From an uncultured archaeon (GTDB taxonomy: Archaea; Iainarchaeota; Iainarchaeia; Iainarchaeales; CAZILS01): DNA of 64,000 nucleotides. The DNA is taken from positions 605 to 64,604 of the forward strand of contig CAZILS010000004.1 in assembly GCA_964540145.1 (NCBI GenBank), given 5' to 3'. This document shows positions 1 to 55,042 of the stretch, piece after piece (the stretch's first letter is position 1; every line of letters begins with the position of its first letter). The notes under the pieces were generated by a model. The model did not search any database. It was not told where the DNA came from and saw only the letters and a program-made list of their open reading frames with translations. The position numbers and the translations under genes were made by a program.

Positions 1-150
1 TTTTTCTTTTAAGGCCTGAATGCCTGAAGCGTCTTTATTTAATGCCAACACCCCGTCTTGTATCAGCAGAACCTTGTCTTTAGGATTCAAATGCCTAATC
101 GCGCTTGGTTCTCCTTTCAGCAAAGATTCTTTTATTATGAATAACACCAT
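1..150 (-). CDS. DsrH/TusB-like sulfur relay protein, 3'-truncated by window edge (N-terminus MVLFIIKESLLKGEPSAIRHLNPKDKVLLIQDGVLALNKDASGIQALKEK...)
   Basis: Manual translation of the minus strand from ATG (cat at 148-150). It has the LLxQDGV motif typical of DsrH/TusB and sits immediately downstream of the DsrE/DsrF-like genes on the same strand. Confidence 0.55.
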   Translation of the reverse strand, partial: MVLFIIKESLLKGEPSAIRHLNPKDKVLLIQDGVLALNKDASGIQALKEK

Positions 151-158
151 TTTTCACC

Positions 159-509
159 TCAAAAATTAATGATTGCTTCAGCCTCGTCGATGAATCCCCT
201 AATCTCCCGTGAAGTTACCTGCTTTGCCCCAATCAAACTGTCCTTTTTAAGGTTCCTCTCAGAGGTGGAATCGGCATCGGCGAATATTTTTAGCCCGAAC
301 TCTTCAGCATTGCTAAATCCCTCCCCCAATCCGGTCATTTCAGCGATTTTCGGGCGCTGGTTTTTTAAAAGGCAGAATACGCCGTCGCCTGAAAAAACAA
401 GCTTTGTCTCCAAGTCCATGCCCGCAAAAGCTATGCCTGCCCTCAATGCTTCTGCCGCAAAAACGCTTCCAAAAGGAGCATTGTTAACCATTATTAACAC
501 TTTTTTCAT
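159..509 (-). CDS. DsrE/DsrF (TusD/TusC) family sulfur relay protein
   Basis: 116 aa. N-terminus MKKVLIMVNNAPFGS with a conserved Cys-containing GDGVFC segment, typical of DsrE/TusD-like proteins. Confidence 0.7.
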   Translation of the reverse strand: MKKVLIMVNNAPFGSVFAAEALRAGIAFAGMDLETKLVFSGDGVFCLLKNQRPKIAEMTGLGEGFSNAEEFGLKIFADADSTSERNLKKDSLIGAKQVTSREIRGFIDEAEAIINF

Positions 510-518
510 TTTGACACC

Positions 519-863
519 TCATATGCTCACGAATTTGTCGCATTCCTTTATTAAGTCTGCAAGCCCTGGGAGGCCTTCAAGCTCTCCTTTTTCTATAAGC
601 TGGCCTCTTTTAATTCCCCTGTACTGAACACAAACCCCGCAAATTTTTACTTCAACACCTAATCTTGTCAATTCATCAAGCTTTCTTGCAAGGTTTCTTT
701 CACTCCCGGAGTTTATCTCTTTGTTTGCCGCAATAACGCTGTCAACATAAAGAAAAATCTTGACCTCGTGCTTTTTTTCAAGTGCTGCCTTTGCCAAATA
801 ATATGCTGTGTCCATATCTTGGTAAGTGTATGGCGGCCTTATAAGCATCAATCCCAGCTTCAT
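519..863 (-). CDS. DsrE/DsrF-like (TusC/TusD family) sulfur relay protein
   Basis: 114 aa with the DsrE-fold pattern (MKLGLMLIRPPYTYQD..., internal Cys). It lies in tandem with a second DsrE-like gene and DsrH. Confidence 0.65.
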   Translation of the reverse strand: MKLGLMLIRPPYTYQDMDTAYYLAKAALEKKHEVKIFLYVDSVIAANKEINSGSERNLARKLDELTRLGVEVKICGVCVQYRGIKRGQLIEKGELEGLPGLADLIKECDKFVSI

Positions 864-1870
864 TGTTTTTCACCTCTCATAAACATAAAGTATGCTGCCG
901 CCCATGCTCCAAGCACAATAAATGTTCCTGCTGTGATGCTGCTTACCGCTAATTGCGGAACCCCGCTCAAAATATGGCCTATGTTGCAGCCGCCGGCAAT
1001 CACCGCGCCCAATCCAAGAAGCATTCCTCCAAAAAGCGCCTGCGCGCCCATTTTTGCTGGCGGCAATCTTATCTTGAATTCATTAGCTATTAACGCCGCA
1101 ATAAAAGCCCCTATTATCAAGCCAATAACCTCAAAAGATTCCCATACTAAAAAGTTTTTTCCCATAACGATCGATTTCACGATGGTTTCAAAACCCGTTG
1201 TTATGCCTAAAGGGTAATTTCTGCCTGCAAAAGCAGAAGCGACAAAAGCAGTTATCCCTATGAGCCCTATGATTATTCCCGCGTTTTTCCACGTCCACCC
1301 TGTCTTGAACCATTTTTCAAAAAAAGGCTTATTGTTTTCGACAAGCCCTTCTTTTTTTCGGAATAGAAAGTAAAATCCAATTGCTGAAAGTATAACAACA
1401 AAAACCCGGCTCGGAACCCCTGTCAAGGCCGATAAAGTTATCTCTCCTAAATCAAATTGGTGAACAGATTCTGTAATATTTGACAGGAAGCCGTCCTTAA
1501 AGAAAAAAGCAGTTAATGCAAATGAGAATAAAGCCAGCATGGAACTCACCATTCCTTCACCCACACGATAAGCTGTGCCGCTAGCGCAGCCTCCTGCAAT
1601 TACCATGCCAACCCCGAACACAAATCCCCCGATAATGGCGCCAAACAGGTAGAATGTTTTTGGAGCAAGGGCAATAATTCCTAAATACGAAAGGAAATGA
1701 AATCCAATCATTTGGATAATCAATGCTAATGCTACTGCCTTCAAGAGTGTAAAATCTTTGAATACCAAAGGGTCGCGGAATGCTGAATTCATGCAGAACC
1801 GCCCCCTCTGCAAGGCAAAGCCGAAAAGCAATCCTACAAACAACCCGCTTATAATTCCGGCTATTTCCAT
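860..1870 (-). CDS. YeeE/YedE family sulfur-compound (thiosulfate) transporter
   Basis: 336-aa polytopic membrane protein with duplicated halves each carrying a conserved Cys motif (GFALQRGRFCMNS; GGCASGTAYRVGEG; GGCNIGH). The adjacent TusA gene fits the YeeE-TusA pairing. Confidence 0.75.
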   Translation of the reverse strand: MEIAGIISGLFVGLLFGFALQRGRFCMNSAFRDPLVFKDFTLLKAVALALIIQMIGFHFLSYLGIIALAPKTFYLFGAIIGGFVFGVGMVIAGGCASGTAYRVGEGMVSSMLALFSFALTAFFFKDGFLSNITESVHQFDLGEITLSALTGVPSRVFVVILSAIGFYFLFRKKEGLVENNKPFFEKWFKTGWTWKNAGIIIGLIGITAFVASAFAGRNYPLGITTGFETIVKSIVMGKNFLVWESFEVIGLIIGAFIAALIANEFKIRLPPAKMGAQALFGGMLLGLGAVIAGGCNIGHILSGVPQLAVSSITAGTFIVLGAWAAAYFMFMRGEKQ

Positions 1871-1874
1871 TGTC

Positions 1875-2111
1875 TCACTTCACTTTTATTAAAATCCGGT
1901 GGTCTGCCCCGCCAATTTTTTCAACAGCAACGACCTTATGCCCTTCCTTTTCCGTGTTTCTTGGGATTCTCTCAAGCGATAAAGGGTAGTCAGTGAGAAC
2001 TTCAAGAATCTCACCGGATTTCATCTCCTTTACTTTTTTCCTCGTTTTAATATCGGGGTAAGGGCAAATTTCTCCCCTCACGTCAATTGTAGCATTTGGC
2101 TTCTCACTCAT
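1875..2111 (-). CDS. tusA: TusA-like sulfur carrier protein
   Basis: 78 aa with the CPYP active-site motif (GEICPYPDIK) in a two-layered alpha/beta sandwich-sized protein. Its start/stop are coupled with neighbouring genes. Confidence 0.8.
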   Translation of the reverse strand: MSEKPNATIDVRGEICPYPDIKTRKKVKEMKSGEILEVLTDYPLSLERIPRNTEKEGHKVVAVEKIGGADHRILIKVK

Positions 2112-2563
2112 TTTGTTTCACCTCGGTTTAATTTATCTCCTGGATTTACACACCCCGTATCAATGCAGGATTTGATTTTGTCTTCCATTTCTTTTGCCAT
2201 GTGGTCTGCATAGCCAATCCAGTACTTGTCCCCAATGAATGTTGTTGGAACCCCCTGCGCCGTTGTGCCGTAAGCTTTTGCGACTTCGTCGAATAGTTTT
2301 GCGTTTTCCGGGTTTTTCCAGGTTTCGAATATTTTTATTTCTATCTCCGGATACTTCTTCTGCATTTCTTCAAGGAATGGTTTTTCGGCAGCACAGTGAG
2401 GGCACCCGTCGCCCCAAAAGAAATAAACTGTTACCTTGCCGGGGTCATCATTGTCAGCCATGACAACATTGCCTGCCGGCGTTGTTTGCGTATCCGAAAT
2501 GCATCCTGCTAATACTATTGCCCCCAATATCACTAACCCTAAATACAAATGCGCGTATTTCAT
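2108..2563 (-). CDS. Thioredoxin-fold lipoprotein (thiol:disulfide oxidoreductase, CPHC)
   Basis: Lipobox LAGC, a WGDGCPHC active site and a thioredoxin fold. Its C-terminal roughly 95 aa are identical to the first Trx domain of the 2948..4621 gene. Confidence 0.8.
   Translation of the reverse strand: MKYAHLYLGLVILGAIVLAGCISDTQTTPAGNVVMADNDDPGKVTVYFFWGDGCPHCAAEKPFLEEMQKKYPEIEIKIFETWKNPENAKLFDEVAKAYGTTAQGVPTTFIGDKYWIGYADHMAKEMEDKIKSCIDTGCVNPGDKLNRGETK
2160..2437. repeat. 278-bp exact direct duplication (copy 1), encoding a thioredoxin domain
   Basis: 2160..2437 is identical to 4230..4507 at the nucleotide level, covering the CPHC Trx domain of two different genes. Confidence 0.9.
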
Positions 2564-2964
2564 TTTATTTTCACCTTGTATGCTTTTTCTGCTTCTGTTG
2601 AATCCAACAATTTATCCGTCTCTTTTTTATCTTCTATTTTGGCCTTCATTATCCAACTTCCGTAAGGGTCTTTATTGATTTTTGAAGGCTCGTCAAACAA
2701 AGAATCGTTCACTTCTATGATTTCTCCGCTAACCGGGCTTGAAAGGTGACCCGACCATTTCACAGCCTCAAGGGAAACATATGTTTCTCCGGCTTTCAGC
2801 TTTTTTCCTTTCTCCGGCAACTTAATAAACACAAATTCCTTGACTTTTTTTGCCGCAGGCTCTGTAATGCCAACGGTTGCCGTGTCTTCATCAAATTTTA
2901 TCCAAGAATAATCATTGTTGTATTTCAGATTACTCGGTAATTTGTATTCACTCATTTTTTTCAC
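2560..2964 (-). CDS. Glycine-cleavage H-like lipoyl carrier protein (GcvH/LbpA-like)
   Basis: 134 aa with a GcvH fold signature and a probable lipoyl-Lys in SLEAVKWSGHLSSPVSGEIIEVN. No gcvP, gcvT or lpd genes are nearby. Confidence 0.7.
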   Translation of the reverse strand: MKKMSEYKLPSNLKYNNDYSWIKFDEDTATVGITEPAAKKVKEFVFIKLPEKGKKLKAGETYVSLEAVKWSGHLSSPVSGEIIEVNDSLFDEPSKINKDPYGSWIMKAKIEDKKETDKLLDSTEAEKAYKVKIK

Positions 2965-4621
2965 CCCTGTTTTTTTTCTTAGTTATTTTTGTGACAACAA
3001 TGATGGTTCCCGCAATAATTACTGCTGTTGCCATTAGCCCAAATGAAATAAATATGTTGTTGAGCAATGCGGGGTCTATCAAGAGTATTGAACCAAGGCA
3101 AAGCATCATTGTTCCCGATATCAGCTTTAAAACCCGCCCTTGCCATTCAGAGAGCTTTTTGGCGCCCAAAGTAATCACGAACATTAGCACGATTATGAGC
3201 AAAGGAATTACATACACCAAATTGTATAGTGCCAAATAAAGATAGTATTCTGTTGACGGTATGTTGTTAAGGGTTAAAATTCTTGTAAAAACCATTGGAA
3301 ACCCCGCGGTGCACAAAAGTTCATAGCTGTTGGCCGCAATGGCTAATACAATAGTGCCTGCCATCATTGAAGTAAGGGATGTGGCTTTAAGCAAATTTCT
3401 CATTTTTTGGAACAATTTTGGCTTTGCGCTCTCAGGGATTACTAATGAAATTCCTTTTTCAAAGAAAAAGAAATCCTTGACATTGATTAATCCAACAACC
3501 AATGCGATTGCCCCCGCAATTGTTGTGACCAGCATGATTTCGCCTATTAAAAGGAAAAGATTTAACCAGGCCGCCATGAACAAAAAGTACATTAAAGCAG
3601 AAACAAACACAAAAGTAAACCCAATCAAAAGCATTCTTTTCCTGCTTTTAGCGTATATCAGCATGCTTAAAAGGAAAAAAAGGATAAAAAAAGCGCAGGG
3701 GTTAAAGCTATCGAGCCCCGCGATTATTATTGTAAATAATGGCAAAGGCATATTTTCAGTGTCAATCTTGCCAAGCACAGGCAACTCAACAACAGTGCTT
3801 TCTTCAGGAGTAATGTCTTTTGGTTGAGGCGGGTATGGAGTAATGCCATTGATTTTACTTGCCGGGCAAACACAACCGGCGTCCTCGCACTTGGTTATTT
3901 CTGAATCAAGATTCTCCAAAATCGCGGTTTCCCCGGCCAAATATTTATTGCCTATAAAAACTATCGGAAATCCGGCGTCAGAAAGCGAATAGATTTCCTT
4001 AAACTGCGAGTATAATTCTTTTTCACCCTCATCGGAAACATCGTGTATTTTTAATTCAATGTCTTGCCGGGCATTTAAAGAGCCTATATAAGGAAGAACC
4101 GAATTGCACTGCGGGCAGTCTCCGATGATAAAAACATGAATGCAGGGAACCTCTTTTGAGGGGGCCGGAAGCGGATTATCTGTCGGGTTATCTTTTGCCA
4201 GCATATCTCCCGGGCTTGCGCATTGGTTTTCAATGCAGGATTTGATTTTGTCTTCCATTTCTTTTGCCATGTGGTCTGCATAGCCAATCCAGTACTTGTC
4301 CCCAATGAATGTTGTTGGAACCCCCTGCGCCGTTGTGCCGTAAGCTTTTGCGACTTCGTCGAATAGTTTTGCGTTTTCCGGGTTTTTCCAGGTTTCGAAT
4401 ATTTTTATTTCTATCTCCGGATACTTCTTCTGCATTTCTTCAAGGAATGGTTTTTCGGCAGCACAGTGAGGGCACCCGTCGCCCCAAAAGAAATAAACTG
4501 TTACCTTATCAGAATCTGTTTGAGCCAGTGCTGGCTGAGCCAGTGCTGGCGAAGCCAACATAAGCGCCAATAAAACCAGAAACAATAGTCGCCCTGCATT
4601 TTTTAAGCCATTCATTTTCAT
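2948..4621 (-). CDS. Fusion protein: signal peptide + two thioredoxin domains (CPHC, CPQC) + CcdA/DsbD-beta-like transmembrane domain
   Basis: 557 aa. Domain 1 is a WGDGCPHC Trx. Domain 2 is IGDCPQC. The C-terminal TM domain carries the GLDSFNPC motif and a second conserved Cys, as in CcdA. Confidence 0.8.
   Translation of the reverse strand: MKMNGLKNAGRLLFLVLLALMLASPALAQPALAQTDSDKVTVYFFWGDGCPHCAAEKPFLEEMQKKYPEIEIKIFETWKNPENAKLFDEVAKAYGTTAQGVPTTFIGDKYWIGYADHMAKEMEDKIKSCIENQCASPGDMLAKDNPTDNPLPAPSKEVPCIHVFIIGDCPQCNSVLPYIGSLNARQDIELKIHDVSDEGEKELYSQFKEIYSLSDAGFPIVFIGNKYLAGETAILENLDSEITKCEDAGCVCPASKINGITPYPPQPKDITPEESTVVELPVLGKIDTENMPLPLFTIIIAGLDSFNPCAFFILFFLLSMLIYAKSRKRMLLIGFTFVFVSALMYFLFMAAWLNLFLLIGEIMLVTTIAGAIALVVGLINVKDFFFFEKGISLVIPESAKPKLFQKMRNLLKATSLTSMMAGTIVLAIAANSYELLCTAGFPMVFTRILTLNNIPSTEYYLYLALYNLVYVIPLLIIVLMFVITLGAKKLSEWQGRVLKLISGTMMLCLGSILLIDPALLNNIFISFGLMATAVIIAGTIIVVTKITKKKNRGEKNE
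4230..4507. repeat. 278-bp exact direct duplication (copy 2)
   Basis: Identical to 2160..2437. Confidence 0.9.
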
Positions 4622-4702
4622 TCCTCCGCAATTAACTTAATTTGTGCTGAAATCCTTTATAAAGATTTATTTCAAAAAATGAAATTGCTTGTTTTGATCC
4701 TT

Positions 4703-5239
4703 TCATTTTATGAAAAGTGCCTTGAAGTCGTTATTCAAAATCACTTTTTTAGTCATGCCTTTTTTTTCTCTCTGCAGTATGCCCTTGGATTCTAGAGCCA
4801 ATAGTCGCCTATGCAGTTTGACAGGACTCAAACCAGTTGCCCCGCCAAGCAGGCTCTGTGTGGCTTCCCCCCTTAGTTTAATTATTTCGCACAATATTTT
4901 CCTCTCTTCAGGGGCTAAAAAATTAAGGGTTTTTTCCACGTCGCCAAAAATTTGCTTCTTTTCTTTTGAAAAAGACACGGATAAAAAATAGTATGTTAAA
5001 ATCCCGACAAACACGCCTAAAGAGGATAATGCCGCAATTACAATCGGCAAGGATGCCCTGCAACCGCAATCCAAACCATATAGTTCCCTTACAAGATAAA
5101 TTGACAGCATAACGATAAAGGTAAAACCCATCACCAACCCAACGGCAAGAATCACATTATTTAAACTATTTTTTTTTTGCAAATTATGAACTCGCATTAT
5201 ATCCACCGGCCACCGGTAAAACATATTGATATAAATCAA
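4703..5239 (-). CDS. Membrane-anchored winged-helix transcriptional regulator (MarR/TrmB-like wHTH C-terminus)
   Basis: Two N-terminal TM helices followed by a C-terminal wHTH (ILCEIIKLRGEATQSLLGGATGLSPVKLHRRLLALESKGIL). Confidence 0.5.
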   Translation of the reverse strand: MIYINMFYRWPVDIMRVHNLQKKNSLNNVILAVGLVMGFTFIVMLSIYLVRELYGLDCGCRASLPIVIAALSSLGVFVGILTYYFLSVSFSKEKKQIFGDVEKTLNFLAPEERKILCEIIKLRGEATQSLLGGATGLSPVKLHRRLLALESKGILQREKKGMTKKVILNNDFKALFIK

Positions 5240-5644
5240 TATTTAAATGTTTTTCTGTTTGTAGTATGCAATTGCGGGGAGTTCTGCCTTTTTAAGCATG
5301 CGGAAACCGCCTTGCCTGTTTATTCGCCAATCTTCCTACAAAATAGCCAAGCAAGCCCCCCGGCACCGGTGTCATTATCTTTATCGGCACAAGGCTTACC
5401 AACTCCTGCTAGCCTATCAGTATTGCCGCCGGAAGAAAAACCGGGAATGAAACCAAAATCCCCTTTAACGCATTATTAATCTTAAGTTCCGAGGCCGAAA
5501 TAAAAAACCGGAAACAACCCAAAGTGAAAATGCGGAGATGTTCGCATCCCGGCCAAGCCCCCGCAAAACCATCGGCATAACATCAAGTATCCCGGCAATC
5601 GCCCCAAAGGCAACCCTGCAAAGACCTTCGGCAGTTTCATCATT

Positions 5645-6415
5645 TCACATTTTGTTTTTCCTTCGCAAAAAGCAGCCCTCCCCGATCTCCTCCTTCAGCA
5701 TCCTGAAAAAGCATTTTTTTGGAGGCCTGTCCCTGTACTTCTCTGCGGCTCTTATTATTTCTTCCATTACCTTTACCACGTGTGCAGGGTGCTTTCCCAG
5801 TGCACTTTCCTCCGAAAGCATGACCGCGCCTGTCCCGTCCAACACAGCATTGGCAACGTCGCTCACCTCCGCCCTAACCGGAATCCTGTTCTTTGTCATT
5901 GACATAAGCATTTCGGTCGCAGTAATAACAAACTTTCTCCTCTTTCTGCACCTCTTGATTATCTCCTTCTGTATGAAGGGAACCTTACACATCGGAAGGT
6001 TTTTCCCAAGGTCGCCCCTAGCAACCATAATCCCGTCGCTTGCCTTTATTATTTCCTCCAAATGCTCAAGGCCCGGAGCCGATTCTATCTTTGAAATGAC
6101 CTTAATCTCCCGCGGCGCAAACTTCTTCCTTAATCTCTCAACCTGCTCCGCGCTCTCCGCAAATGCCATCGCAATGTAGTCAAATTCCCTGCCCTTCAGC
6201 CAGCCGATATGCTCGTTGGTTATGATGTCGAACATCAGCTCGCAGTCCAGGGGCTTAAGCACCCTTATAATTCGGGTGTACTCTTTTTCCGTGCCGTATT
6301 TTGTGTTTATCCTCGCGATATCCATCCCGTTCCTTATCATAGTCTTTATGGTGCGGGTGCCAAAACTCGCAGGTCCGACAGTTGCGACAATCTTCGTATG
6401 CATGGAAATACTCAA
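5645..6415 (-). CDS. Pyruvate kinase-like minimal TIM-barrel protein (A domain only; B lid and C allosteric domains absent)
   Basis: [18 protein letters not shown] (Arg/Asn), KVISKIES (Lys/Glu), MVARGDLG and [11 protein letters not shown] (Thr) match PK active-site motifs. It is only 256 aa, with about 20 aa where the B domain normally sits. Confidence 0.7.
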
Positions 6416-7116: not shown

Positions 7117-8379
7117 CTAAATAGGCATCCTAAGCAAACCCATAATAATCGCCAGCCCGAGAAGAATCAGGAGCAGCCCCACTGCCCAGTGAAGGTTCTG
7201 TATGTTCCTCTCCCGCCATCCGCTCACATCCTCGACCGCGACAAAGCCGGCATAGATGACAAGCGTAATCCCGACCATCGGCGCTATGAATATGCCGAGG
7301 TAAAAGAGCAGGTAGGGGAGCATAACCATAAGCGGGAACTCCGAAAGGATGCCTGCGGCAATCACATATGCCTGTGCCGTGCAGGGAGTTAAGAAAAAGC
7401 TGACAATAATCCCCGCGAGGAACGCCCCTATCAAATAGGACTTGCTTTTCAGCAGGCCGATTATTGTGTCGGTTTCCATCACGCCGCAGCCGGGGCAGTC
7501 CTTTTCCCCCTTCTTCGGTTTCTCCCTCTTTTTCGCGCCAACGCTGTAAAGTATCTGTTTCATCCTCGGCCTCCAGCTTTCCGGCACTTCCATAACAAAG
7601 CCCCCGCCCTTATACCAGATTGCGTCCTTTATGTTCAGCAGGCCCATAAGTATCGCAAGTATCCCCAGCAGCTGGTAGAAAGTCAGGCCGGTGAACGACA
7701 CCATGAGGACGTTCAGGCCTCCCGACATCCCGCCGACAGCCTGTATCCCCCCTATCAGGAGCAGGCCGAAAACGAAGTACATTATGAAGATGGCTGCGCT
7801 GAAGGCGAGTCCCGCGGCAAGCGCCTTCCTCCTCTGCTTCGGATACCTCGTCATTATCGAGGTGAGCAGGATAACAAGCACCGCAATTTCGCAGGGGTTG
7901 ATTGCGTCGATGAATGCAAGGACGCCGAGCTCGATGATGTTTATGTTGTGCCCCTTCTCCCCTATGGGCGGGCACGGTTCTTCCTCCCCGCCATTGGGCG
8001 GCCCGCACGCCTTATGCTCCTCTATCGCGCCCCTCACAGACTCGATACAGGGCCTGTCCCCTATGCAGTAGAAGTCCCCGATGAAAACCTTAGGCACGGA
8101 GCCGTATTCCGAGACAGGTATCCCGTGCTGCTTCTGCAGCCCGAGGAATTCCTGCCAGCCCTCGTTCACGTTTATCTTCTCGACGCTTATCGCGTCCCCG
8201 TATTCCCCCTTCAGCGAGTCAAGGTGCTGGGATAGATTCGCGCAGTGCGGACAGCCGGGCCCGTAGAAGAACTTTACCCCGACCGTCTTCGCGGGCTCCG
8301 CAAATGCACCTCCCGCCAATAACGGGAGCGCGAGCAACGCAAGCAACAGGATAATATGCGGTTTTCCCATCAGGACCAC
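7117..8379 (-). CDS. Thioredoxin (CPHC) - CcdA-like transmembrane fusion protein
   Basis: Signal/TM segment, FYGPGCPHC Trx domain and a C-terminal polytopic domain with the conserved-Cys motifs AINPCEIAV and FLTPCTAQAY, as in CcdA. Confidence 0.75.
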   Translation of the reverse strand: MVLMGKPHIILLLALLALPLLAGGAFAEPAKTVGVKFFYGPGCPHCANLSQHLDSLKGEYGDAISVEKINVNEGWQEFLGLQKQHGIPVSEYGSVPKVFIGDFYCIGDRPCIESVRGAIEEHKACGPPNGGEEEPCPPIGEKGHNINIIELGVLAFIDAINPCEIAVLVILLTSIMTRYPKQRRKALAAGLAFSAAIFIMYFVFGLLLIGGIQAVGGMSGGLNVLMVSFTGLTFYQLLGILAILMGLLNIKDAIWYKGGGFVMEVPESWRPRMKQILYSVGAKKREKPKKGEKDCPGCGVMETDTIIGLLKSKSYLIGAFLAGIIVSFFLTPCTAQAYVIAAGILSEFPLMVMLPYLLFYLGIFIAPMVGITLVIYAGFVAVEDVSGWRERNIQNLHWAVGLLLILLGLAIIMGLLRMPI

Positions 8380-8434
8380 GGGATATTATTTGTATTGCAG
8401 GGTATTTAATAATTGCGCTTTTAACAAGTATAAT

Positions 8435-8995
8435 ATGGAGAAAAGAAAAACCCTGCTGTTCGTGACCTCGAACAGGCACAAGTTCGGCGAGGTCAGGAAA
8501 GTCCTCGCCGAGCACAACATTTTGCTTAGGCAAAAGCACATGGATTTCATCGAAAGCTCAACCCTCTCCTTGGAGGAGGAGGCAAGGCGCAAGGCCGAAA
8601 AAGCGTATGAAAAATACAAACAGCCCCTGATTACCGAAGACACCGGCTTTTATTTCAAAGCATACAAAAACTTTCCGGGAACAAACGCAAAGGAGATGTT
8701 CAACGCACTTGGCTTTGACGGCCTGTTCCGCCTGCTCAAAGGAAAATCAAGGTCTGCCTATGCGAAGGTAGCAATCTGCTACTGCCCCTCAAAAGGAAAA
8801 TACAAAACCTTCACGGGAAAGCTCGAGGGGAAAATAGCAGAGAAGGTTTACAGACCAAGCGATCATAGAATGCCCTATGAGCACATCTTCATAGCCAAGG
8901 GGAGAGAAAAGCCGATGGTGCAGATGTCAAGGCAGGAAAAGAACGCAGTTTCCCACAGGGCGCTTGCCGCAAGGAAACTCTGCGCTTTCCTTTAG
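8435..8995 (+). CDS. Ham1/RdgB-type non-canonical purine NTP pyrophosphatase (ITPase)
   Basis: LLFVTSNRHKFGEV at the N-terminus and a TEDTGFYF motif. The ORF-track start at 8390 is probably a 5' extension; the ATG at 8435 (MEKRKTL...) is preferred. Confidence 0.75.
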   Translation: MEKRKTLLFVTSNRHKFGEVRKVLAEHNILLRQKHMDFIESSTLSLEEEARRKAEKAYEKYKQPLITEDTGFYFKAYKNFPGTNAKEMFNALGFDGLFRLLKGKSRSAYAKVAICYCPSKGKYKTFTGKLEGKIAEKVYRPSDHRMPYEHIFIAKGREKPMVQMSRQEKNAVSHRALAARKLCAFL

Positions 8996-45638: not shown

Positions 45639-46097
45639 TTATCCCGAGCAATATCCGACCAAAGGTTTGTCCCCGCTTTCAAGGACATGGGTTAGGTCCT
45701 GTGTTGAATAGTTTATATCTATATAGTAGCTGAACACACTCCCGGACCGGCAGGCCTTTCCCATCGTGATATCAAGCCTCTTCTTCTCGCCGGGGGCATA
45801 ATTTGTGTCGTTGATAAGTATGGCATTTCCATCGACAATAAACTCCTCAACAGAGATGTTTCTCACAGTGTTGTTCTGCAGTATGAACTCTGTTTCACTT
45901 TCATTAGGCGTTACTTTCCATTCCACAACCGCAAGGGGGTATGCGCTTTCCCAGTATGCCCTGCTTTCTTTCTCGGTTATGCCTGTCGCAACTCCCGGAA
46001 ACCAGCCCATAACCCCGACCACAATAAGCGCTATGATAATGATTATCGCAAGCAGAACGAGATATTCGGTTGCTCCCTGCCCTTTCAATCTTCCCAT
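45639..46097 (-). CDS. Type IV pilin-like protein (class III signal peptide, KGQ|GATEY, Q+1/E+5)
   Basis: MGRLKGQGATEYLVLLAIIIIIALIVVGV; divergent paralog of the two identical pilins upstream. TATA-like TTTAAATA at about 46128. Confidence 0.75.
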   Translation of the reverse strand: MGRLKGQGATEYLVLLAIIIIIALIVVGVMGWFPGVATGITEKESRAYWESAYPLAVVEWKVTPNESETEFILQNNTVRNISVEEFIVDGNAILINDTNYAPGEKKRLDITMGKACRSGSVFSYYIDINYSTQDLTHVLESGDKPLVGYCSG

Positions 46098-46210: not shown

Positions 46211-46687
46211 TTATGCGCAGTCGCCGACAAGCGGCTTTGCGCCAATCTGCTTCAGCCCCGATATCTTCTGGGTGTCGTAGTTGATATTGACATCAAGGCT
46301 GTATGGCTGTCCCGCGCTGCATGTGAACCCCGTCAGCGCAACCACTGTCTTGGTCTCGCCTGCGGTGAACTCAAGGTTAGCCGAACCTGTATTGAAGTCC
46401 CCGCTGCTGGTGTTTATGTCCTGCAGGGTTATCTTCTTGCTGGTCATGTTCTGTATCGCGAATTCCGCATCAGTTGCTCCTGTAGAGGTAACCTTCCAGT
46501 CCACAATTGCGAACGGATATGTGCCCTCCCAGTAGGCCCTGCTCTGCGCAGCGGTTATCCCGGTGCCAACGCCCGGCATCCAGCCCATGACCCCGACAAC
46601 AACCAATGCAATAACAATGATAACCGCGAGGATTATCAGGTATTCGGTTGCGCCCTGGCCCTTTGAATTGATTTCCATCTTTAGCAT
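46211..46687 (-). CDS. Type IV pilin (major pilin candidate), copy 1 of identical tandem pair
   Basis: MLKMEINSKGQGATEYLIILAVIIVIALVVVGV; 158 aa; identical to 46831..47307. Confidence 0.8.
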   Translation of the reverse strand: MLKMEINSKGQGATEYLIILAVIIVIALVVVGVMGWMPGVGTGITAAQSRAYWEGTYPFAIVDWKVTSTGATDAEFAIQNMTSKKITLQDINTSSGDFNTGSANLEFTAGETKTVVALTGFTCSAGQPYSLDVNINYDTQKISGLKQIGAKPLVGDCA

Positions 46688-46830: not shown

Positions 46831-47307
46831 TTATGCGCAGTCGCCGACAAGCGGCTTTGCGCCAATCTGCTTCAGCCCCGATATCTTCTGGGTGTCGTAG
46901 TTGATATTGACATCAAGGCTGTATGGCTGTCCCGCGCTGCATGTGAACCCCGTCAGCGCAACCACTGTCTTGGTCTCGCCTGCGGTGAACTCAAGGTTAG
47001 CCGAACCTGTATTGAAGTCCCCGCTGCTGGTGTTTATGTCCTGCAGGGTTATCTTCTTGCTGGTCATGTTCTGTATCGCGAATTCCGCATCAGTTGCTCC
47101 TGTAGAGGTAACCTTCCAGTCCACAATTGCGAACGGATATGTGCCCTCCCAGTAGGCCCTGCTCTGCGCAGCGGTTATCCCGGTGCCAACGCCCGGCATC
47201 CAGCCCATGACCCCGACAACAACCAATGCAATAACAATGATAACCGCGAGGATTATCAGGTATTCGGTTGCGCCCTGGCCCTTTGAATTGATTTCCATCT
47301 TTAGCAT
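46831..47307 (-). CDS. Type IV pilin (major pilin candidate), copy 2
   Basis: Protein identical to copy 1. Confidence 0.8.
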   Translation of the reverse strand: MLKMEINSKGQGATEYLIILAVIIVIALVVVGVMGWMPGVGTGITAAQSRAYWEGTYPFAIVDWKVTSTGATDAEFAIQNMTSKKITLQDINTSSGDFNTGSANLEFTAGETKTVVALTGFTCSAGQPYSLDVNINYDTQKISGLKQIGAKPLVGDCA

Positions 47308-52579: not shown

Positions 52580-53082
52580 TCGCTCACCCCCACCCTCACC
52601 ACAACGCTGCTGCCGTTGTAGTACGCAGGTCTTGCGACAGTAACGACCGTTGCGTTCCCGTCCCCGTCGGTGCCGAACTTCGCAGCCTGCTGCCCCCCCT
52701 GAAGGTAATTTATCGTGATTCCCACATTGTATCTCCCCGCCCCGAAAAGCCCCTTTGCGTCGGAATAGCTTGAATTCAGGTCCACGAGCCTCGCCAGCTT
52801 GTCCCCGTCGATAACCGACCTTTCCTGTACAAGCCCTATCGAGTTGATGTCGTCGATGCTCGCCAGGTATTCCCAGTTGGCCGGGGACCCTTTACTGTAG
52901 AGCAGCTGGTTGCTTGCCCTAAGTGCCGCTTCTTTCATATCATAGTCCTTCTCTGCATTGTTGAGGCTGTTCTGGAGCGCAGTCGCATAGACTATGCTCA
53001 CCGTGACAAGCCCGACAAATACCGTGAAGGCGACGACCGCATCGGTGCTGAACATTTGCCCCTTACTATTCAACGCCCTCAA
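52576..53082 (-). CDS. Minor pilin-like protein (SKGQ|MFSTDAVVAF)
   Basis: Class III signal with Q+1. Confidence 0.6.
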   Translation of the reverse strand: MRALNSKGQMFSTDAVVAFTVFVGLVTVSIVYATALQNSLNNAEKDYDMKEAALRASNQLLYSKGSPANWEYLASIDDINSIGLVQERSVIDGDKLARLVDLNSSYSDAKGLFGAGRYNVGITINYLQGGQQAAKFGTDGDGNATVVTVARPAYYNGSSVVVRVGVSE

Positions 53083-55042
53083 CCCTTACTTTTTCCCCTA
53101 AATTGGTGGCCTTGAAAATCCTCGGGTTTTCGAGGAGTTCCCATATGCACCCCCCCTGTAACTGGCACTCCGCCTGGAGTATGAGCCCTATGCAGCTTGT
53201 GCAGCTCCCCTGGCAGTCGGGCGGTGTCCATGAACAACCGTCCTGCCCCCCGCAACTCCCCTCGGTGCCGAAGGTCCCGCATCCTGTACAGCCCCCGTAA
53301 CAGTCCGCCAAGTCCCAAGAACATCCGTCCTGCCCCTCGCACGTGCCCTGTGCACCATATGTATCGCATGCGGTACAGCCCCCGTAACAGTCCGCCAAGT
53401 CCCAAGAACATCCGTCCTGCCCCTCGCACGTGCCTTGGCTACCGTAGCTTGTGCATCCTGTGCATGTGCCGTTGCAGTCCTCATCCCAGCCACACCCGTC
53501 CTGCCCCTCGCACGTGCCTTGGCTTCCGTAGGTGCTGCAGGCAGTGGGCGAGCCTGCACACTCATCAGGGTTCCACAGGCACCCGTCCTGCCCCTCACAC
53601 GTGCCCTGTGCACCATATGTATCGCATGCGGTACAGCCCCCGTAACAGTCCGCCAAGTCCCAAGAACATCCGTCCTGCCCCTCACACGTGCCCTGTGCAC
53701 CATATGTATCGCATGCGGTACAGCCCCCGTAACAGTCCGCCAAGTCCCAAGAACATCCGTCCTGCCCCTCGCACGTGCCCTGTGCACCATATGTATCACA
53801 GCCTGTTTCCGTGCCGTAGCAGTTCTCGGGATCCCAGGTGCATCCCGAGTCCTCGCATTCCCCCTGCCCCCCGTCATGTGCCGAGCAGGCGTGCGGTTCC
53901 CCCGAACACCACCATATAATGAACCATGTTGCTGTACAGCCGTGCGCTTCGCATGTTGCCTGGTCGCCTATATATGTTGTGCAGGGGTCATGCGTGCCCT
54001 CGCAGTTCGCAAGGTCCCAAGAACACTCGTCCTGCCCCTCGCAGTTCCCCTGTGCACCATATGTATCACAGGTTGTTGCCGTGCCCTCGCAGTTCGCAAG
54101 GTCCCAAGAACACTCGTCCTGCCCCTCGCACGTGCCTTGCGCACCATATGTATCGCATGCGGTACAGCTCCCATAGCAGTCCTCCTCATCCCATGCACAC
54201 CCCCCCTGCCCCTCGCAGTTCCCCTGCGCACCGTAAGTCGTGCAGTCCGTGCATGCTCCTGCGCAGTCCTCCTCATCCCATGCACACCCCCCCTGCCCCT
54301 CGCAGTTAGGCTGGCTTGCGTAGTTGTTGCAGTCGTTACAGCTCCCATAGCAGTCCTCCTCATCCCATGCACACCCCCCCTGCCCCTCGCAGTTCCCCTG
54401 CGCACCGTAAGTCGTGCAGTCCGTGCATGCTCCTGCGCAGTCCTCCTCATCCCATGCACACCCCCCCTGCCCCTCGCAGTTAGGCTGGCTTGCGTAGTTG
54501 TTGCAGTCGTTACAGCTCCCATAGCAGTCCTCCTCATCCCATGCACACCCCCCCTGCCCCTCGCACGTGCCCTGCGCACCGTAGGCATCACAGGCGGTAC
54601 AGCTACCTGCGCACCCGCCTCCTCCCCATAAACATCCCGACTGGGCATTGCAGTCGATTTCCGTGCCGAATGAGCCGCATTCTGTGCAGCTCCCTTGGCA
54701 GGTCGTGCTGTCGATGAGCTCGGCGTTCTTTGTCAGCAACGGCATGTCAAGGAAATTGCCCCTCCATGAAACTTCGACAGTATTGTCGGCTATATCGACG
54801 TTATAGTCCTCGCCGAGCCTCCCGACATTTATGGTTGCCTCCGCCCCCGTCCCTCCCAGCCAGACATTGTTTATCCCCCTTGCAACCTCTGACGCGATTT
54901 CCTTCGCCTCCAGGACCTCTCTCGCATAGATATAACCTTCCGTCCTCTCCCCGTATGTGAAGACCGCGAACGACAGCACTATGAAAAGCGCCACCACCAC
55001 AACAATGAACTCCATGCTCGCCTGCCCTTTTTTCCCACCCAT
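53066..55042 (-). CDS. Pilin-like protein with about 17 tandem cysteine-rich repeats (consensus roughly C-T-A-C-D-T-Y-G-A-Q-G-T-C-E-G-Q-D-G-C-S-W-D-L-A-D-C-Y-G-G)
   Basis: Class III signal peptide MGGKKGQ|ASMEFIVVVVALF, then a roughly 550-aa repeat array with 5 Cys per roughly 29 aa (about 90 Cys in total). The underlying DNA is near-identical 87/174-bp repeats, and that DNA repetition is why both strands throw up many ORFs here. Confidence 0.8.
   Translation of the reverse strand: MGGKKGQASMEFIVVVVALFIVLSFAVFTYGERTEGYIYAREVLEAKEIASEVARGINNVWLGGTGAEATINVGRLGEDYNVDIADNTVEVSWRGNFLDMPLLTKNAELIDSTTCQGSCTECGSFGTEIDCNAQSGCLWGGGGCAGSCTACDAYGAQGTCEGQGGCAWDEEDCYGSCNDCNNYASQPNCEGQGGCAWDEEDCAGACTDCTTYGAQGNCEGQGGCAWDEEDCYGSCNDCNNYASQPNCEGQGGCAWDEEDCAGACTDCTTYGAQGNCEGQGGCAWDEEDCYGSCTACDTYGAQGTCEGQDECSWDLANCEGTATTCDTYGAQGNCEGQDECSWDLANCEGTHDPCTTYIGDQATCEAHGCTATWFIIWWCSGEPHACSAHDGGQGECEDSGCTWDPENCYGTETGCDTYGAQGTCEGQDGCSWDLADCYGGCTACDTYGAQGTCEGQDGCSWDLADCYGGCTACDTYGAQGTCEGQDGCLWNPDECAGSPTACSTYGSQGTCEGQDGCGWDEDCNGTCTGCTSYGSQGTCEGQDGCSWDLADCYGGCTACDTYGAQGTCEGQDGCSWDLADCYGGCTGCGTFGTEGSCGGQDGCSWTPPDCQGSCTSCIGLILQAECQLQGGCIWELLENPRIFKATNLGEKVRVEGVE

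Follow-up and report, generated by a model that had tools for sequence, protein, structure and literature searches.

Several described systems handle thiols or sulfane sulfur with parts that recur at the locus reported here. In the DsbD, CcdA and ScsB-ScsC systems, a membrane domain with one essential cysteine in transmembrane helix 1 (TM1) and another in TM4 is combined with fused or partner thioredoxin (Trx)-fold proteins outside, and thioredoxin is the partner in the cytoplasm. The Lpd-DlaT-AhpD-AhpC system of Mycobacterium tuberculosis is one that we take to be a comparable lipoyl relay, with a flavoprotein disulfide reductase as partner. The GcvH-L/LplA2 pair of Staphylococcus aureus uses protein-bound lipoamide as a redox carrier or antioxidant, with a dedicated ligase alongside (PMC12440151). 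sHdr-LbpA systems encode a GcvH-like lipoyl protein and its own ligase together with TusA and DsrE-family sulfurtransferases (PMC6067878, PMC11094781). A three-cysteine transporter with an adjacent TusA-like CPxP protein marks both the YeeE-YeeD (TsuA-TsuB) pair and the YTD cluster (YeeE-TusA-DsrE), which sulfate reducers and cable bacteria are known to carry as one unit (PMC13293266), and the TusA-TusBCD-TusE-MnmA pathway combines TusA with a three-subunit DsrE/F/H-fold complex that has a conserved active cysteine. This work concerns a block of nine genes that brings such parts together at the left edge of a 64,000-nucleotide stretch of DNA (hereafter the window) from an uncultured archaeon of the Iainarchaeota (assembly GCA_964540145.1, contig CAZILS010000004.1, positions 605 to 64,604 of the forward strand).

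Comparison with related loci points to the front part of an operon shared by DPANN archaea and bacteria of the Candidate Phyla Radiation (CPR) and centred on a dedicated lipoyl protein. In the reading that we place first, tentatively and at somewhat below an even chance, lipoylated GcvH would be the cytoplasmic dithiol for a DsbD/CcdA-like membrane protein and would receive sulfane sulfur from the relay encoded beside it. Judged by gene order, such a DsbD-like pathway, with a lipoyl protein for its partner and a sulfur module that can be swapped, is apparently undescribed; a literature search on lipoate or GcvH in DPANN or CPR organisms, incomplete in its coverage, found nothing relevant.

A lipoyl carrier without glycine-cleavage partners

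The nine genes lie on the minus strand at 1-5239, and neighbours overlap by 4-17 nt or sit at most 9 nt apart, except for one 81-nt gap after the first gene. They form the promoter-proximal part of an operon that the window edge breaks inside the gene for DsrH. An initial annotation of the DNA had recognised DsrE/DsrF/DsrH, YeeE, TusA, a Trx lipoprotein and GcvH in a tight same-strand block, and Pfam and NCBIfam profile searches agree. Its limits of 1-4621 are too narrow, since the regulator gene at 4703-5239 belongs to the block too. All genes of its complete sulfur-relay set are called, but DsrH is cut by the edge, so that the set is incomplete inside the window.

The GcvH-family lipoyl carrier (2560-2955, minus strand; PF01597, 123.7 bits) has 131 residues counted from the ATG at 2955. 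Its open reading frame (ORF) reaches back to a GTG at 2964, the upstream gene's stop overlaps with its start, and a 131-residue database entry (P0001) is 100% identical to it. The protein scores above the cut-off of NF002270 (134.6 vs 117) and below that of the stricter equivalog TIGR00527 (108.3 vs 115.85). The lipoylation site is intact: the lysine in the EAVKW motif aligns with the lipoyl-lysine of Escherichia coli GcvH and is kept in 33 of 33 relatives. Glycine-cleavage partners had been reported missing nearby, and tblastn, with queries confirmed as genuine GcvT and GcvP, indeed finds neither in the 64-kb window nor in any of 39 DPANN/CPR-type loci. The same scan gave 50 ordinary bacterial GcvH loci, 41 of which have GcvT within 10 kb and 37 GcvP. 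This GcvH therefore looks like a purpose-built lipoyl carrier rather than a glycine-cleavage H-protein or an orphan, because GcvH, ligase and synthase genes travel together and, in relatives, the operon continues with a dedicated lipoylation set.

A conserved cassette with a variable slot

DPANN archaea and CPR bacteria supply the closest homologues of this GcvH. When one genome was scanned for each species, 30 DPANN-type loci emerged (GcvH 46-87% identity); they were annotated locally against a reference set from Pfam-labelled loci, and gene lists were read around four GcvH homologues. The gene for the membrane-Trx protein lies immediately upstream of GcvH in 29 of the 30, mostly in frames that overlap by 4-17 nt, and a regulator is usually ahead of it. 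GcvH is followed by a Trx lipoprotein or a DUF169 protein, a variable slot, LipA, a small lipoprotein, split LplA/LplB (LplA-large and LplB being present in the operon of orthologous loci) and a second lipoprotein. The LipA is canonical (TIGR00510, 348 against a cut-off of 310) and keeps the CX4CX5C, CX3CX2C and RSSY motifs; lipoate assembly of the LipS1/LipS2 type was considered and rejected, as the scores are just 19 and 33 bits. An invariant CTSGCGGVYPGPY motif marks the small lipoprotein after LipA, and a single invariant cysteine in GYCPTM marks the second lipoprotein; neither has a family match (L004 13007-13477 or 14504-15121, and orthologues).

The slot takes four states. It holds TusA-YeeE-DsrE-DsrF-DsrH in the window and in nine other distinct loci, and about a third of related loci have the relay. 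Fourteen loci have a CoADR/Nox-family flavoprotein with a single cysteine there, one (L013) has both, and five have neither. Among loci complete to LipA/LplA, six have the relay only, one has both, ten the flavoprotein only and five neither. The test for exclusivity gives a Fisher p of 0.063 on non-independent loci, and mutual exclusion of relay and flavoprotein is only suggestive. The flavoprotein was also considered as a true dihydrolipoamide dehydrogenase (Lpd) and rejected, being CoADR/Nox-like with a single Cys42 in SPCALPY.

Relay-type loci fall in four separate groups of the GcvH tree, and LipA directly follows DsrH in all seven that extend that far. In the closest relative (L001), which shares 88.8% DNA identity with the window across 4,277 nt, LipA starts 2 nt after DsrH and is followed by LplA, LplB and a lipoprotein. 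No homologue of LipA, LplA or the flavoprotein is found across the 64-kb window, and by the orthologous loci LipA and LplA/LplB should lie just past window position 1. Exact-protein look-ups with DsrF, DsrE, GcvH (P0001) and the membrane-Trx protein (P0121) led to no record that reaches past this edge. The conserved unit is the membrane-Trx protein with GcvH and LipA/LplAB, of which the first two form the invariant, translationally coupled core, and the relay is an optional five-gene module. The sulfur relay, around which the block had been described at the outset, is thus not its unit.

The same cassette, in its flavoprotein form, occurs in CPR Moranbacteria (L170 6084-13286, on a 1.3-Mb contig), with a GcvH 64% identical to that of the window and the membrane-Trx gene directly upstream. 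Its presence in both groups implies either transfer between domains or shared ancestry. In most related loci the cassette is flanked by genes for an ArsR-family protein, an ArsE-type Trx, an SO_0444/SaoE-like permease, an ArsG-type permease, an ArsF-type protein, ArsA, ACR3 and a small HgcB-like ferredoxin (for example L001 7000-8658 and L002 14056-20396).

The membrane thioredoxin protein and its neighbours

The gene upstream of GcvH (2948-4621, minus strand) encodes a 557-residue Trx-Trx-membrane thiol:disulfide protein with a signal peptide, a first Trx domain (CPHC), a second Trx domain (CPQC) and a seven-helix domain, and has weak Trx/Grx matches. The Trx domains hold extra conserved cysteine pairs, and ScsC-type and DsbA-type proteins are among their sequence matches. 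Within the hydrophobic domain, alignments of 22 and 78 homologues show invariance only at Cys309 (FNPC) and Cys437 (ELLCTAGFP). A confident AlphaFold2 model of this domain built from the 78 homologues (predicted local distance difference test score, pLDDT, 85.5) shows seven helices, with TM1 and TM4 broken at Cys309 and Cys437. The protein thus has the DsbD/CcdA-type pattern of two TM1/TM4 cysteines, each beside a proline. In a Foldseek search of the PDB, the nuclear magnetic resonance structure of CcdA (5vkv) is the sole match with a meaningful template modelling score (0.44/0.52, probability 0.54), at an E-value of 1.7 that is not significant, and the remaining matches reach at most 0.22. 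A PDB profile search matched the Trx part alone. Basic loops after helices 1 and 5 and a basic tail, read from the sequence, would place the Trx domains outside and the C-terminus inside.

The initial annotation had named this protein a Trx-Trx-CcdA fusion. The CcdA part of that name needs correction: no DsbD/CcdA Pfam model matches this seven-helix domain, whose two intramembrane cysteines are invariant and whose sole structural match is CcdA. Like the DsbD, CcdA and ScsB-ScsC systems, the locus combines a two-cysteine TM1/TM4 domain with fused and partner Trx-fold proteins outside. Unlike them, it escapes their sequence models, has seven helices rather than six or eight, and has as its gene-linked cytoplasmic partner a lipoyl protein with its own lipoylation enzymes instead of thioredoxin. 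The lipoyl relays of M. tuberculosis and S. aureus differ in other ways: they are cytoplasmic, use an E2 subunit or an ADP-ribosylation-controlled GcvH-L, and include neither a two-cysteine membrane protein nor a sulfur relay. The flavoprotein found in relatives of the window's cassette is also unlike the Lpd of the M. tuberculosis relay, being CoADR/Nox-like with one cysteine.

The membrane-Trx family has more than 7,500 homologues, and its membrane part carries no Pfam domain. A bacterial member adjoins a DUF255-type Trx protein with no GcvH there, and another homologue (P0134, L089 8001-10169) is fused at its C-terminus to VKOR, in a locus with a regulator and ars-like genes and without GcvH, LipA or LplAB. 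The window itself holds a second paralogue (7117-8379, minus strand), with one Trx domain and a two-cysteine membrane domain, native GC content and no GcvH beside it. It is a near-match to PF11139 (33.5 bits, cut-off 35) and lies between a MarC/NAAT-family transporter gene and a 201-residue ORF at 8390-8995.

On the other side of GcvH, the gene at 2108-2563 (minus strand) encodes an extracytoplasmic Trx-fold lipoprotein of 151 residues with the lipobox LAGC, a CPHC site and a C-terminal cysteine pair; its Pfam matches to Trx, Grx and DsbA are weak. Its best matches among solved structures are DsbA active-site regions, the Methanocaldococcus jannaschii thioredoxin 1fo5 is matched too, and its cysteines are conserved among relatives. 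A direct repeat of 300 nt links this gene to the membrane-Trx gene: copy 1 (2134-2433) lies within the lipoprotein gene, copy 2 (4204-4503) encodes the first Trx domain of the membrane protein, and the copies are 96% identical in DNA and 91% in protein. This points to a gene-conversion event between them, or a duplication, in the recent past.

The first cassette gene (4703-5239, minus strand; PF13412, 22.4 bits) encodes a membrane-anchored regulator of the winged-helix (helix-turn-helix) type, with a CxC between two hydrophobic segments. Homologues occupy the same position in 17 related loci, where a weak DUF7343 match is seen, and Cys44 and Cys46 are conserved. The intergenic region at 4622-4702 may hold, by inference only, a minus-strand promoter of the membrane-Trx gene, with a TATA-like TTTATAAA (4663-4656) and a GGAGG (4627-4623) before that gene.

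The sulfur relay and its possible acceptors

The five relay genes, all on the minus strand, run to the window edge. The TusA/YeeD-like sulfur carrier (1875-2111; 78 residues; PF01206, 80 bits) is encoded 4 nt upstream of YeeE and has a CPYP motif that is kept in ten of ten copies. The YeeE/TsuA-type sulfur transporter (860-1870; 336 residues; PF04143, 280 bits) aligns over residues 7-333 with YeeE of S. thermophila (6leo, E 9e-66) and has all three conserved cysteine motifs, at a score below the NCBIfam TsuA cut-offs (305.6 vs 400). Thiosulfate is a candidate substrate; YeeE-family SoxT proteins transport other sulfur species (PMC11582611).

Three co-encoded subunits of the DsrE/F/H fold follow, two matching PF02635 and the third being DsrH. 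The DsrE/TusD-like subunit (519-863; 114 residues; PF02635, 79 bits) has Cys75 in a C75-G-V-C78 site, aligned with Cys78 of both Allochromatium vinosum DsrE (2hy5_A) and E. coli TusD (2d1p_A), so that the active-site cysteine is intact. All ten DPANN copies and 20 of the 21 stand-alone modules have this CxxC, against a single cysteine at this site in classical DsrE. The DsrF/TusC-like subunit (159-509; 116 residues; PF02635, 65 bits) falls below the TusC equivalog cut-off (TIGR03010, 59.6 vs 94), and the TusD equivalog cut-off is missed as well (54.3 vs 89). Of the DsrH/TusB-like subunit only the N-terminal 50 residues lie in the window (1-150, by translation), without a cysteine, and the remainder is past the edge. 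This fragment is 84% identical to the DsrH of L001, which passes PF04077 and the TIGR03011 cut-off (71.5 vs 49.2).

The relay also exists on its own. In a YeeE-seeded scan, the identical five genes stand free in identical order in 19 of 80 non-DPANN metagenome contigs; the same scan gave no further DPANN cassette copies, with relatives at 53% identity or less. The gene content is that of the YTD cluster, and the free-standing module agrees with it too (PMC13293266). The DsrEFH of cable bacteria belongs to a type II that is less than 25% identical to type I and has Cys67 as the active cysteine. In a comparison with type I only, the window's DsrE is detectably similar to the protein of A. vinosum (E 2e-8), which argues against type II.

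Motif-level scans of the ORFs in the 64-kb window found no PP-loop ATPase motif, no credible DsrC/TusE C-terminus, no rhodanese and no HdrB signature, and the gene lists of related loci show no DsrC/TusE/PP-loop acceptor. The initial annotation had likewise noted no Hdr or obvious acceptor. The tRNA thiolation and DsrC routes for the relay sulfur were rejected on these absences, and nothing supports thiouridine as the destination. Among the three destinations that had been suggested, comparative genomics favours a thiol:disulfide circuit with the CcdA-like neighbour.

These results set the relay apart from its described counterparts. Relative to the TusA-TusBCD-TusE-MnmA pathway, there is no TusE-like gene or thiouridylase PP-loop motif in 64 kb, scores stay under the TusB/C/D equivalog cut-offs, and YeeE is part of the unit. 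Relative to YTD, the relay is embedded in a lipoyl-GcvH operon, its DsrE has a CxxC and no DsrC or DsrAB lies nearby. The likeness to sHdr-LbpA systems that had been pointed out is fair, with a lipoyl carrier, a ligase and TusA/DsrE in common, the ligase being LplA-large/LplB of orthologous loci and not inside the window. The differences are a canonical LipA instead of LipS1/LipS2, a membrane-Trx protein as the invariant partner, and DPANN/CPR hosts rather than sulfur-oxidising lithotrophs. A scan of the window for CCG motifs of sHdr (HdrA/B/C-like) genes gave only short spurious ORFs, and the gene lists around related loci contain none.

Lipoyl-GcvH is joined to a sulfur relay a second time, independently, on a metagenome contig unrelated to the cassette (L092, 1-9311). 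It encodes an Hdr-like fragment, an FeS protein, a fused LplA, AsrA/B-like oxidoreductase subunits, GcvH, TusA, DsrE2, DsrEFH, TusA, YeeE and a second DsrEFH.

A proposed lipoyl dithiol hub

In the mechanism that we tentatively prefer, LipA and LplA/LplB would use free octanoate or lipoate to lipoylate GcvH. Its lipoyl arm, as dithiol or disulfide, would then act as the cytoplasmic partner of the membrane cysteine pair, the role that thioredoxin has for DsbD/CcdA, and a low-potential dithiol in the cytoplasm would be linked to the Trx lipoprotein and the other cysteine-bearing lipoproteins outside. In the window's variant, YeeE would bring in sulfur from thiosulfate or polysulfide, TusA would accept it as a persulfide and hand it on to DsrEFH, at the CxxC cysteine site of its DsrE subunit, and dihydrolipoyl-GcvH would resolve the persulfide to sulfide. 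The sulfur end point would be the lipoyl dithiol, not tRNA; that dihydrolipoate can accept sulfane sulfur of the rhodanese type is established (cited in PMC6067878). Where the CoADR/Nox-like flavoprotein is present, it would use NAD(P)(H) to set how far lipoyl-GcvH is reduced or oxidised, and in the window's variant it may be unlinked or replaced by the relay. Loci with neither module mean that an unlinked redox partner must exist in some genomes, so the missing flavoprotein gene in the window does not alone make the relay its substitute.

Electron flow in the outward, reducing direction is favoured only slightly over inward flow, because of the DsbD-family precedent, the usual NAD(P)H-to-disulfide direction of CoADR-type enzymes and the low potential of lipoamide. 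The reducing dithiol hub accordingly ranks first, short of an even chance, and an oxidative model ranks second, as an unlikely one.

Several observations weigh against the dithiol hub. The membrane domain has no match to the DsbD_TM (PF02683), DsbD_2 (PF13386) or CcdA Pfam models, and hhalign against bona fide PF02683 proteins from related loci gives a probability of 0.3%. The whole mechanism, with contact and electron transfer between GcvH and the membrane protein, is deduced from gene order. LipA/LplAB, which are not in the window, are placed in the operon by analogy with loci that share 68-87% GcvH identity with it. The slot lacks both relay and flavoprotein in five loci, so that neither is essential to the core, and most related loci come from metagenome bins and are phylogenetically non-independent. 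The relay stands free in many contigs without GcvH, and its linkage to the operon could be incidental. The CPHC site and its flanks are DsbA-oxidase-like, which fits inward rather than outward flow.

A broader formulation, which we regard as doubtful, is that DPANN and CPR organisms, without respiratory quinones, would run their envelope cysteine chemistry from protein-bound lipoamide. Lipoyl-GcvH would dock on the DsbD-like membrane protein in place of thioredoxin or quinone, relay sulfur from YeeE-TusA-DsrEFH would replace NAD(P)(H) in the window's variant, and disulfide formation or reduction outside would be coupled to sulfane-sulfur reduction or sulfide oxidation inside. If the proposals made here are true, lipoate gains a role outside central metabolism in two large radiations of ultra-small symbionts that seemingly have no other use for it, and a cytoplasmic partner can be named for the large membrane-Trx family. 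They would also answer how quinone-free cells manage extracellular cysteines and give the widespread YeeE-TusA-DsrEFH relay, outside Dsr organisms, a new end point in the lipoyl dithiol.

Alternative explanations

The same parts could work in the opposite direction as a disulfide-forming machine for quinone-free cells. DsbA-like Trx proteins would oxidise secreted cysteine pairs, electrons would pass inward through the membrane domain to the lipoyl disulfide, and the resulting dihydrolipoyl-GcvH would be re-oxidised by the flavoprotein or, in the window's variant, by sulfane sulfur imported through the relay, which would be the terminal electron acceptor and leave as sulfide. The CPHC site and flanks match DsbA best, each relay step would run in its known direction, and the window encodes cysteine-pair pilins and a 658-residue cysteine-rich surface protein. 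The cassette is found in DPANN and CPR lineages, which to our knowledge generally lack quinones. Relay and flavoprotein act as alternative modules of one slot, and in one case VKOR is fused to a homologue whose locus lacks GcvH, LipA and LplAB, though this fusion is a single case. Against this direction, M. jannaschii thioredoxin has CPHC and yet a low redox potential. We also know of no DsbD-superfamily member with inward electron transport, the normal reaction of CoADR/Nox enzymes is NAD(P)H-dependent disulfide reduction, and lipoamide, at -0.29 V (PMC6067878), is a poor oxidant for protein thiols. Less probable than this inward flow is that the relay is an independent YTD-type module for thiosulfate or sulfane-sulfur assimilation in a permissive operon spot, feeding Fe-S (iron-sulfur) clusters, cysteine, thio-cofactors or tRNA with no tie to GcvH. 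Its free-standing copies and the known YTD unit (PMC13293266) agree with such independence, as does a core cassette that works without the relay in most lineages. Yet the relay sits inside the operon, with the Trx gene on one side, LipA on the other and frames that overlap by 4 nt, and holds the same position in loci from all four groups of the GcvH tree. The unrelated GcvH/LplA locus on L092 has the same kind of relay, and an acceptor gene is absent from the window and the related loci.

The position of LipA directly behind DsrH in the seven complete relay-type loci, 2 nt away in L001, raises the idea that the relay feeds LipA. TusA/DsrEFH persulfide would rebuild the auxiliary [4Fe-4S] cluster that is sacrificed in each turnover, and the block would be a self-contained lipoate factory; the auxiliary-cluster motif CX4CX5C is kept. 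We consider this improbable: most cassettes have LipA without the relay, LipA lies as close behind the flavoprotein, and no role in supplying Fe-S assembly is known for TusA or DsrEFH. A transporter and four carrier proteins would also be a heavy outlay for lipoylating one protein. Very improbable, in our judgement, is a metalloid or metal resistance island in which the lipoyl dithiol and the thioredoxins would act on arsenicals or thiophilic metals alongside the flanking ArsR, ArsE, ArsF, ArsG, ArsA, ACR3 and ArsP-like genes. Dithiols such as dihydrolipoate do bind arsenite, and ars-like genes flank the cassette in most loci (ArsE-type Trx, TIGR00412, 112.6 vs 62; ArsG-type permease, 297 vs 200) as well as the VKOR-fused homologue. 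They lie outside the tight core, however, on either side and in either orientation, they are absent from the window and from the CPR copy, and the related-locus gene lists contain no arsenate reductase.

Host, origin and other features of the window

The thermosome encoded in the window shares 72-80% identity with proteins that are annotated as Diapherotrites, Micrarchaeota and Aenigmarchaeota, which makes the host a DPANN archaeon. With 41% GC and a GC content at third codon positions (GC3) of 0.39-0.49, the cassette (1-5300) differs from the other window genes tested, whose GC3 is 0.59-0.74; the closest cassette copy, 88.8% identical in DNA, is on a contig of 34% GC. Because its base composition is foreign to the host, the cassette was probably acquired horizontally, as a recent island in a DPANN genome. 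The boundary may instead be a chimeric assembly join near 5300-5650. Abutting it, at 5645-6415 on the minus strand, is a 256-residue pyruvate-kinase-like ORF with part of the barrel domain and no C-terminal domain, which may be a remnant or a minimal form.

A type IV pilus-like cluster includes a gene (53066-55042, minus strand) for a 658-residue protein of repeated cysteine-rich units (C-x-G-x-C-x-x-C ... YG.QG.CEGQ.GC.WD), which matches no family and might be a client of an extracytoplasmic thiol-disulfide system. Two tandem, identical genes (46211-46687 and 46831-47307, minus strand) encode 158-residue proteins with an archaeal-pilin-like hydrophobic N-terminus, with a period of 620 nt and 97% identity over a 300-nt repeat. 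The interval 45639-46097 holds a third paralogue, and each of the paralogues has two cysteines in its C-terminal part.

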